A DNA stretch of 6,659 nt from a virus (taxonomy: Duplodnaviria; Heunggongvirae; Uroviricota; Caudoviricetes), in the IMG/VR virus record IMGVR_UViG_648276660_000002. One strand, 5' to 3'. Numbering within the stretch: position 1 is the stretch's first letter; every line of letters starts with the position of its first letter. Below, one piece after another: positions 2,948-6,573 of the stretch. A program made the position numbers and the translations under genes. The notes under the pieces were generated by a model. It saw only the letters and a list, made by a program, of their open reading frames with translations, did not search any database and was not told the origin of the DNA.

Positions 2948-3803
2948 TAATCTTGCAACCGTAACACATTTAAGGCCTTCACAACGGCCTGTGGAGCGTC
3001 GTGTGGCAGAAGTTGAAGATGGTTATACCCGTCTTGCAAATGCCCTGTATGAAGAGCTTATCGGCGCAGATTTAACGAAAAATCAGAGCAAGGTTGCCCA
3101 CGCCATATGCCGTAAAACATACGGCTACGGTAAAAAGATGGATCGCATCTCTGATAGTCAGTTAGCTCAAATTACCAGGCTGCCAAGACAGAAGGTAAAC
3201 AAGGCCAAGAATGAGCTTATCGCGATGAAGGTTATCCTTCGCGAAGGCCAGCAAATCGGTCCTAACAAGAACATCGAAGAATGGCAAATCGAAGGGTGTC
3301 ACTACTCTGGTGATAATGTCACTACATTGGTGACAAAAAGTGTCACCAAAACGGTGACAGCGCTGTCACCAAAACAGGGACACACAAAAGAAACTATTAC
3401 AAAAGAAAAAAGAAATAATAAAAACACTATGTCCGAAAGTGTTCGGACGGAGTGTGAAAAATCACCTGACCGTCACGAAGAAATCGACAAGGCATTCGAG
3501 GAAATATTCTGGTGTGCAGGCATGCGGAAAGCCGGGAAGAAAAACGCAGCTTCGGCATTCAGAACACAGTTCAGGGAATGGCGTAAAACTACCAGGGGTA
3601 CGGCAAGCGAGTTTGCTACGATGCTGGCAGAAGACATCGCATGCAGGAATGGTAAGCAGTTCGGATTCGACAGGTTGTTACCATCGAGCTACCTGAACGG
3701 TCAACGCTGGAACGACGAGAAGCCAGAAACTATTCAACCACAATCCAAACCATCATCCGCAATCACCGTATCGAAAACTGGCTACGTGTTTTTCGACAGG
3801 TGA
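2943..3803 (+). CDS. O: Replication initiator, lambda O-like N-terminal origin-binding domain with divergent C-terminus, 286 aa
   Basis: N-domain matches lambda O in motifs [50 protein letters not shown]. The gene contains the iteron/AT-rich origin. The C-terminal third does not resemble the P-binding domain of lambda O as I recall it. Confidence 0.88.
3309..3428. other. Origin of replication inside the O-like gene: palindromic iterons (3309..3370) plus AT-rich region (3381..3428)
   Basis: GGTGAtaatGTCAC (3309..3322), GGTGACAaaaagTGTCACC (3329..3347), GGTGACAgcgcTGTCACC (3353..3370), then ACAAAAGAAACTATTACAAAAGAAAAAAGAAATAATAAAAACA. Same layout as ori-lambda. Confidence 0.75.
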
Positions 3804-3910: not shown

Positions 3911-5791
3911 ATGACGCCAAGTGAACTTAGCGACCTGCTTTGGGCGCAGGTTGACAGGGTGGCTCCGCACCTGTTGCCAAACGGCAAGAAAGAGGGGCAT
4001 GAGTGGGTTGCCGGTAACGTCAACGGCGACAAGGGAAACAGCCTTAAGGTCAACCTTAGCGGCAAGAAAAAATGGGCTGATTTCGCCGAGGGAGACGGCG
4101 GTGACATGCTTGATTTGTGGATGGCATGTCGTGGAATTAACCTGCATCAGGCTATGCAGGAAGCGAAAGCATTTCTCGGTATCAAGGATGACGATCACCA
4201 TTTCGATGCCAAACGTGAGAAAAAATTCTCCAGACCTGATCGCAAGAAAATCGCCCGCTACGTTACCAGAACAGAATCCCATCTTGAGTACCTGCAATCG
4301 CGTGGCATATCGCCAGAAATCGTAAAGCGCTACGAGGTTGTCAGCGGCAAGGTGTGGAATGGAGAGCGGGAACTGGATGCTCTGGTGATTCCGTACAAAC
4401 GCGATGGTGAGTTGTTGCAGGTCAAGCGAATCAGCACTGAGCGCCCGGACGGGAAGAAAGTCATTATGGCAGAAGGTGATTGCGAACCTTGTCTGTTCGG
4501 ATGGCAGGCTCTGGACGCTGGCGTGAGGGCGGTTGTGCTTTGCGAAGGCGAAATTGATTGTATGAGCTATGCGCAATACGGCATCTCGGCGTTATCCGTG
4601 CCGTTTGGTGGCGGGAAAGGCGCTAAGCAGCAGTGGATTGAGTTTGAGTATCACAACCTCGACAGGTTTGAGGAAATATTCATCTCGATGGACGTTGATG
4701 ATGTTGGTCGTGAAGCCGCAAGGGAAATCGCAAGCCGACTCGGTGAACATCGTTGCCGTCTTGTTACTCTGCCGTACAAAGACATCAACGAATGCCTGAT
4801 GAACGGTGTTACCGAGGATGAAATCTGGCAGTACATCGGCACGGCATCCTACTTCGATCCTGAAGAACTCTACAGCGCGCGAGAGTTTTACCAGGACACT
4901 ATCAACGCTTTCTACGGCAAGCAGCAGTATCTGTTTAATCCACCGTGGGAATCTCTGGCAGATAAATTCCAGTTCCGTGAGGCCGAGTTGACGCTGGTCA
5001 ATGGTGTGAACGGTCACGGAAAAACGGAGGTTGTCGGGCATATGGCACTTGAGGCAATGCGTCAGGGTGTGAAGACGTGCATCGCGTCACTTGAGCTGAA
5101 GCCTGGTATTCTCCTTAAGCGCCTTACCCGTCAGGCGACGTGCTGCAAGATGCCGCCAGTGCTGGAAATTGACTCTGCATTTAAATTTTATGACGAAAGA
5201 CTTTGGGTGTTTGGCCTGACCGGAACGGCGAAAGCCGACAGGCTGATCGAAATATTCGACTACGCTCGCCGCCGATACGGGATCCAGTTATTCATCATCG
5301 ACAGCCTGATGAAATGTGGCATAGGCGACGATGACTATAACGGGCAGAAGGCGTTTGTTGACTCGATTTGCGACTTCAAAAACAAAACAAACTCCCACGT
5401 CATTCTCGTTACTCACTCCAGAAAAGGAGACAGCGAAGAAAAACCAACCGGGAAAATGGACGTAAAAGGCTCTGGAGCGATAACAGACCTGACAGACAAC
5501 CTTTTCATCATCTGGCGTAACAAGGCTCGCGAGAGAGCGTTACAGAGAGTTCAGAGTGGTGAAAAGATGTCAGAGAAGGACGAACAGCTACTGGCATCTC
5601 CGGCATCTGTTTTGATGCTTGAAAAACAACGTAACGGCGAAGGTTGGGAAGGTGGTGTCCCGTTGTTCCTTGACGAGCAATCGCACCAGTTCCTGCAACT
5701 TGAATCAGGATCGCCATATAGCTACATCGCCAATATGCCGAAATCGGAATATGACGAGGCGTGGCGACAGGAAAACGTGACGGAGTATTAA
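3911..5791 (+). CDS. Bifunctional primase-helicase: DnaG-type Toprim primase fused to a RecA-fold, probably SF4 DnaB/T7-gp4-like, helicase; 626 aa
   Basis: Toprim acidic motifs CEGEID (4541..4558) and DVDD (4691..4702); Walker A GVNGHGKTE (about 5003..5029); Walker B LFIIDSL (5288..5308). GAGGG upstream of the ATG. Occupies the slot of lambda P. Confidence 0.9.
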   Translation: MTPSELSDLLWAQVDRVAPHLLPNGKKEGHEWVAGNVNGDKGNSLKVNLSGKKKWADFAEGDGGDMLDLWMACRGINLHQAMQEAKAFLGIKDDDHHFDAKREKKFSRPDRKKIARYVTRTESHLEYLQSRGISPEIVKRYEVVSGKVWNGERELDALVIPYKRDGELLQVKRISTERPDGKKVIMAEGDCEPCLFGWQALDAGVRAVVLCEGEIDCMSYAQYGISALSVPFGGGKGAKQQWIEFEYHNLDRFEEIFISMDVDDVGREAAREIASRLGEHRCRLVTLPYKDINECLMNGVTEDEIWQYIGTASYFDPEELYSAREFYQDTINAFYGKQQYLFNPPWESLADKFQFREAELTLVNGVNGHGKTEVVGHMALEAMRQGVKTCIASLELKPGILLKRLTRQATCCKMPPVLEIDSAFKFYDERLWVFGLTGTAKADRLIEIFDYARRRYGIQLFIIDSLMKCGIGDDDYNGQKAFVDSICDFKNKTNSHVILVTHSRKGDSEEKPTGKMDVKGSGAITDLTDNLFIIWRNKARERALQRVQSGEKMSEKDEQLLASPASVLMLEKQRNGEGWEGGVPLFLDEQSHQFLQLESGSPYSYIANMPKSEYDEAWRQENVTEY

Positions 5792-5820
5792 ATGACCATC
5801 TACATCACTGAGCTTGTAAC

Positions 5821-5852
5821 AGGCCTGCTGGTAATCGCAGGCCTTTTTATTT
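5821..5852 (+). terminator. Intrinsic terminator after the primase-helicase gene (tR2-like position)
   Basis: Perfect 8-bp stem AGGCCTGC (5821..5828) / GCAGGCCT (5837..5844), 8-nt loop, followed by TTTTATTT (5845..5852). Confidence 0.6.
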
Positions 5853-5867
5853 GGGGGAGAGTAAATC

Positions 5868-6074
5868 GTGGTTGAGTTAATTTTCTCTGCATTGAGGATT
5901 CTCGGTGCTATGTGGATGGTGGTGACGTTCATTGTGGTTGCCAGCAGTTTTATCCGGTTGGTGGGTGAAGGTAAAGACATGGTGGGTGTGCTTTTCGGTA
6001 GCATTCTAATGTGGGTGATTATCGGTGTTGCGCCTGTCGCTGTAGCAAAAATGGCGTGGCGTTTTGTGAGTTGA
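5868..6074 (+). CDS. Small hydrophobic protein with two predicted transmembrane segments, 68 aa, GTG start
   Basis: MVELIFSALRILGAMWMVVTFIVVASSFIRLVGEGKDMVGVLFGSILMWVIIGVAPVAVAKMAWRFVS. GGGGAGAG lies 6 nt upstream of GTG 5868. G-rich first codon positions look coding. Function unknown. Confidence 0.4.
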   Translation: MVELIFSALRILGAMWMVVTFIVVASSFIRLVGEGKDMVGVLFGSILMWVIIGVAPVAVAKMAWRFVS

Positions 6075-6091
6075 ACTGAGGGTAAGTACCG

Positions 6092-6406
6092 ATGGACGAA
6101 TCAAGAAAGCAGTTTGAGGAATACGTTGCCAAAAAATTGAGATTACCATTCGAGATGATAACCGAGGCAAGAAATGGTGATAGGTACTTCGCATTTTCAA
6201 GCATGGATATTCGTCACTCCTTAAATGAGTGGTGGACTTTATGGCAGGCATCGCGAGCAGCTATTGAAATAACCGCGCCAAAGTTTATCGACAGCAGAGA
6301 AGCATTAGCCAAAGGGTTTACTGTTGATTATTCCAATGGCTTCGGTGATGCAATGGATGCTTATGAGGAAAACATCAGCGCTGCTGGAGTCAAAGTGAAG
6401 GAGTGA
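6092..6406 (+). CDS. Hypothetical protein, 104 aa, in the ren/nin position
   Basis: ORF with GAGGG about 10 nt upstream, same strand as the operon. Not recognisable as lambda Ren from memory. Confidence 0.6.
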   Translation: MDESRKQFEEYVAKKLRLPFEMITEARNGDRYFAFSSMDIRHSLNEWWTLWQASRAAIEITAPKFIDSREALAKGFTVDYSNGFGDAMDAYEENISAAGVKVKE

Positions 6407-6408
6407 GT

Positions 6409-6573
6409 ATGAGCGCATACGAAGAAATCATGTTAGCCCTGCGATTCTTTTTCGGTGTGGAAGAAGATGAAAACGTAAATGAGATTATCGGGCAAGACCA
6501 TGACCCGATAGGGACTATTGCAGCTGCACTTGACGATTACAGGAGCGTAAATGGTGAGGAAACTAACGTTTGA
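6409..6573 (+). CDS. Small highly acidic protein, 54 aa (MSAYEEIMLALRFFFGVEEDENVNEIIGQDHDPIGTIAAALDDYRSVNGEETNV)
   Basis: ATG 2 nt after the stop of the 104-aa ORF, with GGAG upstream; its 3' end overlaps the ninB start by 23 nt. Found by manual translation, below the ORF-track cutoff. 13 of 54 residues are D/E and only 2 are K/R. Confidence 0.4.
   Translation: MSAYEEIMLALRFFFGVEEDENVNEIIGQDHDPIGTIAAALDDYRSVNGEETNV

Follow-up and report, generated by a model that had tools for sequence, protein, structure and literature searches.

The window, i.e., the whole stretch of 6659 bases analysed here, is 100% identical to a prophage of E. coli MS 198-1. In the PGAP annotation, the genes of this prophage run in the order Ral, N, a small hypothetical gene, cI (LexA family), cro, cII, DUF2740, O, primase/helicase, three small hypothetical genes, NinB, NinE, NinX, NinF, antirepressor, DUF1364, RusA, NinH, Q and holin, which is a lambda-like order. 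The N gene is annotated on the minus strand (nt 389-715) and a nutL boxB (GCCCTGAAGAAGGGC), identical to that of lambda, was found on the same strand at nt 826-840. On the plus strand, nutR (nt 2380-2411) is made of boxA (CGCTCTTA, nt 2380-2387) and boxB (GCCCTGAAAAAGGGC, nt 2397-2411), both identical to their lambda counterparts. The lambda-identical nutR and nutL boxB thus indicate that the prophage uses lambda-type N antitermination. Further downstream, a replication gene (nt 3911-5791, plus strand) codes for a 626 aa primase/helicase with Toprim and DnaB_C/AAA_25 domains (phrog_239, E = 1.5e-171; "toprim domain-containing protein" in PGAP). It is followed, on the same strand, by a 27-codon ORF (nt 5792-5875), by a 68-codon ORF (nt 5868-6074), by two small accessory ORFs (nt 6092-6573) of 104 aa (phrog_343) and 54-56 aa (phrog_1603) and by ninB, which starts at nt 6551/6554 and continues past the end of the window. 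A minus-strand ORF of 99 aa (nt 5705-6004) was set aside, since the conservation pattern is accounted for by the plus-strand genes.

Some other elements of the window were also recorded. A strong 14-bp hairpin with a T-run lies on the minus strand (nt 2735-2767) inside the 3' end of the cII-like gene (nt 2488-2769), placed like the terminator of the lambda OOP antisense RNA and with no match in Rfam. Just downstream of the cI-like repressor, a minus-strand ORF (nt 1019-1423), annotated by PGAP as a 134-aa hypothetical protein (nt 1152-1556 of L214, the source genome NZ_CP146687.1), has a signal-peptide-like N-terminus and occupies the slot of rexAB in lambda; it may be a moron coding for a secreted protein or lipoprotein expressed in the lysogen. 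At E ≤ 1, Rfam gave no match in the region, the sole match (nt 3149-3203) being at chance level.

The 27-codon ORF (MTIYITELVTGLLVIAGLFIWGRVNRG) opens with an ATG (nt 5792-5794) immediately after the TAA stop of the primase/helicase (nt 5789-5791), its upstream coupling partner, in a TAAATG junction, and closes with a TGA (nt 5873-5875). Both direct reading and the ORF listing bear out the original prediction of an ORF that starts at the helicase stop (TAAATG). A GGAG Shine-Dalgarno (SD) motif is located 6 nt 5' of the ATG (nt 5782-5785), with an anti-SD pairing of -6.1 kcal/mol, in the top 8% of the background and equal to the value at the helicase gene's own start. At the 3' end, the junction GTGGTTGA (nt 5868-5875) contains the GTG of the 68-codon ORF (nt 5868-5870) 5 nt upstream of the stop, so that the predicted overlap of this stop with the start of a two-TM ORF was also found.

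The encoded peptide is 100% identical to NinA of HK620 (NP_112059.1/Q9AZ16) and matches phrog_5907 (E = 1.1e-18). ninA is annotated in P22 (record M10074.1 of Backhaus & Petri), HK620, Sf101, Lahn3, mEp234, ECP1 and PhiR12_4, with O, primase/helicase and NinA arranged in Sf101 as in the window. The window ORF aligns with the ren-ninB spacer of lambda, and its product differs from lambda NinA, over residues 1-23, by I9V only. As in lambda, P22 and HK620, the start touches the upstream stop and the ORF ends at the start of the next gene, its stop overlapping it. The upstream junction is ATGA in the lambda/P22-type ninA and TAAATG in the window, and the tail, which varies with the downstream gene, is GKS in the 26-aa NinA of lambda, P22 and Sf101 versus VNRG in the 27-aa NinA of the window. 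On this sequence evidence, the ORF at nt 5792-5875 is ninA. A 27-codon ORF by itself is not beyond chance, whereas a terminator and a start/stop geometry kept across many phages are. [quoted passage not shown] In HK620 (L208, nt 1285-1490), NinA has the VNRG tail of the window and about 200 nt without an annotated gene precede ninB; what is left of the 68-aa gene, or a copy that escaped annotation, may lie in this gap.

Inside ninA, a hairpin is formed by the stem arm AGGCCTGC (nt 5821-5828), the 8-nt loop TGGTAATC and the arm GCAGGCCT (nt 5837-5844), and is followed by the U-tract TTTTATTT (nt 5845-5852). The stem counts 8 bp, 6 of them G-C, and was recognised as terminator-like by a consensus scan; folded alone, nt 5821-5852 gave -15.2 kcal/mol (z = -4.0), and none of 200 shuffled sequences folded as well. 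Codons 10-18 of ninA correspond to the hairpin and codons 18-21 to the U-tract, in accordance with the earlier proposal that the central codons are themselves the terminator stem. The U-tract is directly followed by GGGGGAGAG (nt 5853-5861), the SD of the gene placed after the terminator, here the 68-aa ORF, with an anti-SD pairing of -8.8 kcal/mol (top 0.5% of the background); in lambda the same bases precede ninB.

The sequence at nt 5821-5852 is base-for-base that of lambda tR2. In an alignment of the window with lambda (NC_001416, the copy being the ren-ninB spacer that holds tR2), H-19B, Stx2-86, HK022 and mEp235, an uninterrupted run of 43 or more bases, starting with the stem and including GGGGGAGAG, shows no variation (columns A60-G102), and the equivalent bases are labelled "tR2" in the HK620 and Lahn3 records and "rho-independent terminator" in that of mEp235. 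The element lies in the pR operon, 3' of the replication genes and 5' of ninB and Q, with N and nutR present, i.e., in the same place and under the same N/nutR system as in lambda. Only the neighbours differ, with ren upstream in lambda versus the primase/helicase in the window, and with ninB next in lambda versus three small accessory ORFs before ninB in the window. Judged by identity and placement, the hairpin and U-tract are lambda tR2. Its location within ninA is the ordinary arrangement for a lambda-like prophage, tR2 and ninA having been known since the early 1980s; the original prediction had missed both the canonical terminator and the named gene. Residues 11-23 of NinA (GLLVIAGLFIWGR) are encoded by the stem, loop, U-tract and SD, and since these elements dictate them, the hydrophobicity of the peptide is largely imposed by nucleic-acid signals.

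The arrangement was followed in 200 IMG/VR loci, 80 retrieved with the 68-aa protein and 120 by exact matching of the terminator, which together with annotated phage records gave 161 distinct tR2 contexts. Invariance of the terminator is overstated for about half of this set, because those loci were gathered by exact terminator match; in the protein-anchored half, one core mismatch was present in 4 of 78 loci. A start codon exactly 30 nt before the stem was found in 154 of the 161 contexts (ATG in 152, GTG in 2), and the ATG to GTG change, seen in the ren context, leaves the Ren protein unchanged and ninA with a start codon. The other seven contexts, of the HK022 type, have no ninA start, and their upstream TAA abuts the stem; they comprise HK022 itself (L002, nt 1490-1530) and six IMG/VR contexts (L029, L040, L057, L091, L159 and L186), all with tR2 kept. 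Therefore, neither tR2 nor the downstream gene depends absolutely on ninA.

The 30 nt located 5' of the ninA ATG belong to seven unrelated families, namely lambda ren, the P22 gene-12 type, a DnaB-like helicase, Stx2-86 orf69, the primase/helicase of the window and two others. In all seven, the upstream stop overlaps or abuts the ninA start (ATGA in five, TGATG and TAAATG in the remaining ones) and sits 29-30 nt from the stem; an SD-like element is likewise present in all seven, 6-9 nt 5' of the start, with anti-SD pairing of -5.9 to -11.6 kcal/mol, in the top 0-9% of a background drawn from the interior of the O and helicase genes. On the downstream side, no fewer than eight different genes were seen, i.e., ninB, members of the 68-aa family and ORFs that begin with VADWQ, MNLDK, VNDSY, MSTIA, MKDLL and MMRKK. 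Their starts are placed at -5 to +3 nt relative to the ninA stop, and NinA accordingly ranges from 24 to 31 aa, its tail being fitted to the start of the next gene. The chance of each downstream start/stop coincidence can be put at 0.15 or less and that of all eight below 1e-6, as an estimate and not a computed test.

Codons 2-10 are the sole ninA codons free of both the terminator and the SD of the next gene. They show 9 synonymous and 6 conservative non-synonymous alleles, against about 26% synonymous expected (binomial p = 0.005), and synonymous to non-synonymous ratios of 6:9 and 1:14 in the other two frames. The test has n = 15, tallies alleles and not events and ignores transition bias, and the synonymous bias points to selection on the frame in a suggestive manner only. 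Clear evidence that the ninA frame is maintained by selection as a translational link comes instead from the comparison of contexts, because the geometry of start, SD and stop is kept across unrelated upstream and downstream genes. The same comparison shows the block of about 85 bp containing ninA and tR2 as a joint common to many different replication and nin modules.

The ORF that follows ninA in the window (nt 5868-6074, plus strand) matches phrog_1165 over its full length (residues 1-68 of 68, E = 6.4e-36) and belongs to an already catalogued hypothetical family, being a hypothetical protein in HK022 (gp58), Stx2-86 (orf70; ORF69 in Lahn2), mEp235 (gp46) and PGAP (WP_000229810.1). The phage members are 68-aa proteins with 85-99% identity, and in HK022, Stx2-86 and mEp235 the junction with ninA is GTGGYTGA as in the window. 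Apart from the shorter start annotated for mEp235 gp46, which the conservation of residues 1-14 speaks against, nothing notable sets these phage members apart from the window. Among 5426 complete E. coli genomes, 521 (~10%) carry the gene, which also occurs in prophages of Salmonella, Erwinia, Pantoea and Izhakiella. It is intact at exactly 68 codons in 49 of 52 distinct alleles, which fall into two clades with about 54% protein identity. Between the clades, pN/pS was 0.53 (JC-corrected omega 0.36) versus 0.89 and 1.0 in the alternative frames; by this synonymous versus non-synonymous comparison, the ORF looks like a real gene.

GTG 5868 is the sole workable start, because of an in-frame TAA (nt 5862-5864) and of the conservation of residues 7-14. 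A later ATG start (M15/M17, as in the mEp235 annotation) was ruled out by the conservation of residues 7-14 in distant homologues and by a pN/pS of 0.32-0.66 in codons 2-14. In these homologues, which come from prophages of Erwinia, Pantoea and Izhakiella and show 31-39% identity, W16, W49, G53, K61 and W64 are conserved. In the Erwinia locus, the sole one inspected of four, the homologue lies in an ATGA-linked chain after O-type replication genes and upstream of a 148-aa ORF, taken as putative ninB-like, and no terminator-like site was found upstream of it. This nin-type setting without a terminator indicates that the 68-aa family belongs to the nin region without being bound to ninA/tR2.

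A search of 5.8 billion proteins retrieved 194 relatives of the 68-aa protein, all the named ones being "hypothetical" or "uncharacterized" and none having a Pfam domain, and an exhaustive search of 1.84 billion representatives returned only 14 clusters and no link to a larger family. Nothing specific to the protein was found in the literature. In agreement with the two transmembrane segments of the original prediction, the Kyte-Doolittle profile has two hydrophobic spans, peaking above 1.6 at about residues 4-29 and 38-60, and the AlphaFold2 model is a helical hairpin with helices at residues 2-33 and 38-67 (pLDDT 89), joined by a short charged loop (EGKD) and ending in a basic C-terminus (K61, R65). 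From this model, the product would be an inner-membrane helical hairpin, probably with an N-in/C-in topology by the positive-inside rule. As the gene lies behind tR2 in an N-dependent delayed-early operon, it would be expressed in the lytic phase and not from the repressed prophage, and we infer that its product is a dispensable delayed-early accessory protein.

Some alleles depart from this pattern. In the last ~63 nt of the ORF (nt 6012-6074), synonymous sites are much more conserved than elsewhere (pS 0.25 vs 0.79), and the 3' third of the ORF is also found by itself in other E. coli genomes (H110-H115), both features pointing to recombination that left a mosaic joint within the gene. Codon 15 is an in-frame TGA in some clade-B alleles, i.e., in H-19B (L004, about nt 1575-1620) and in two IMG/VR contexts, and one clade-A allele is frameshifted; the gene is therefore occasionally pseudogenised.

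The original prediction also suggested that small hydrophobic proteins in this slot could be toxin-like or exclusion cargo. More broadly, NinA and/or the 68-aa protein might act on membranes as toxin-like or exclusion effectors or as modulators of host membrane proteins, in accordance with their strong hydrophobicity (GRAVY 1.13 and 1.53, respectively), with the Trp, Gly and Lys residues invariant in the 68-aa family across Escherichia, Salmonella, Erwinia, Pantoea and Izhakiella, with its spread among the complete E. coli genomes and with the amino-acid-level conservation in NinA codons 2-10. However, neither NinA nor the 68-aa protein had a match in Pfam, NCBIfam or PADLOC, i.e., to any defence, toxin or annotated family, and a Foldseek search of the 68-aa model against viral structures retrieved generic helical hairpins only, none at E ≤ 0.001. 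Neither a promoter of their own nor an antisense partner was detected, a scan of both strands near nt 5700-6100 giving no sigma-70-like match. Moreover, lambda is without the 68-aa gene, pseudogenised alleles exist, genes of the nin region have been described as nonessential (PMC8022706) and a loss of DNA from this region was reported for Sf6 under laboratory evolution (PMC5630979). We thus regard an effector role as rather unlikely; with no family match, no nearby promoter and an expression that would be lytic, the cargo proposal found no support. A type I or other small membrane toxin, which has its own promoter and a cis-antisense RNA or antitoxin partner, was rejected, as no promoter-like site was seen near nt 5700-6100 on either strand and no match was found in Rfam or PADLOC.

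Termination at tR2 without N blocks the expression of the nin genes and Q. In lambda, pR transcripts that pass tR1 stop at tR2 when N is lacking, and N loaded at nutR suppresses this termination (PMC7084815). In the window, transcripts passing tR1 would likewise end, without N, at the hairpin and U-tract of nt 5821-5852, leaving the nin genes and Q blocked, and with N loaded at nutR (nt 2380-2411) RNA polymerase would pass tR2. How translation bears on this step was addressed by Li et al. (PMC4824070), who studied lambda tR2 with its natural upstream sequence and found the terminator nearly fully repressed with a translated stop few bp upstream (efficiency <10% at 5 bp) and maximally efficient (~0.9) once the upstream stop was more than 27-30 nt away. 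The first ten codons of ninA may thus serve as a spacer that holds the upstream stop 29-30 nt from the stem, so that tR2 would stay efficient because this stop sits just past the ~27-nt range of repression by ribosomes. In the HK022-type contexts, where the TAA abuts the stem, terminating ribosomes should repress tR2, as predicted from PMC4824070.

On read-through mRNA, ninA may also act as a relay. Ribosomes ending the primase/helicase would restart at ATG 5792 by means of the SD GGAG, cross the hairpin, halt at the TGA at nt 5873-5875 and restart at GTG 5868 by means of the SD GGGGGAG to produce the 68-aa protein. Of the translational coupling originally predicted, the geometry is real and kept by selection across contexts, and the relay itself is what this geometry suggests; the next gene's own strong SD (-8.8 kcal/mol) might make coupling unneeded. 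We consider it quite probable that the region is a tR2/ninA junction, with ninA as spacer and relay, in the early-right (pR) operon of a lambda-type phage, and that the gene after it codes for an accessory small membrane protein.

A further function can be envisaged for ninA on the transcripts that end at tR2, where it has no stop codon and would give rise to non-stop ribosome complexes, as in the reporters carrying the lambda sequence. The lambda NinA initiation site was active in these reporters ("not weak"), and non-stop translation on tR2-terminated transcripts halved the upstream reporter, expression being restored by mutation of the RBS or the ATG (PMC4824070). Without N, relayed ribosomes would then run off the 3' end near codon 20, causing trans-translation and decay of the O-primase/helicase mRNA and keeping the replication genes low until N acts. 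The halved reporter fits such a post-transcriptional shut-off but does not establish it in the phage, and that ninA was selected as a device of this kind seems to us unlikely. A specific membrane target of NinA or of the 68-aa protein would be a weaker alternative.

According to another explanation, the region acts as a terminator only, ninA being an accidental open frame and at most the 68-aa ORF being translated. This would account for the lack of ninA in PGAP and in many phage records and for the HK022-type phages that keep tR2 without a ninA start, and the terminator and SD do fix 11-13 of the 27 ninA codons. It is hardly compatible, however, with the persistence of start, SD and stop-start overlaps in unrelated contexts, 7 of them upstream and at least 8 downstream, with an ATG to GTG variant that is still a start codon, with a variation in codons 2-10 biased to third positions and with the active initiation of lambda ninA in the reporter (PMC4824070), and we hold it to be very unlikely.

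Least probable of all, to the point of being nearly discarded, is that ninA is a leader-peptide attenuator in which translating ribosomes prevent the hairpin and tune read-through of tR2: the hairpin does lie physically inside ninA, as the short ORF of pyrBI, trp and his covers an intrinsic terminator, and nearby ribosomes do strongly repress tR2, but unlike those attenuators ninA/tR2 has no competing antiterminator fold or other alternative structure and no series of regulatory codons. On the identical lambda sequence, translation from the natural NinA start was shown, by silencing this start, to lower efficiency by only ~10%, and within 30 nt of the start codon the first ribosome has not yet reached RNA polymerase (PMC4824070). 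In phages of this type, read-through is under the control of N/nut, present here as well. A choice between terminator and antiterminator decided by ribosomes was thus rejected, as it is already largely refuted for the lambda sequence, and with it the proposal that translation opposes terminator formation.

For a tR2/ninA junction with ninA as spacer and relay, the relevance is small beyond correct annotation, automatic annotation by PGAP omitting ninA here, and the hydrophobic 27-aa peptide would mostly reflect, at the protein level, the sequence of a terminator and a ribosome-binding site. The 68-aa family, on the other hand, is a widespread, uncharacterised small membrane protein that could merit a simple genetic test.
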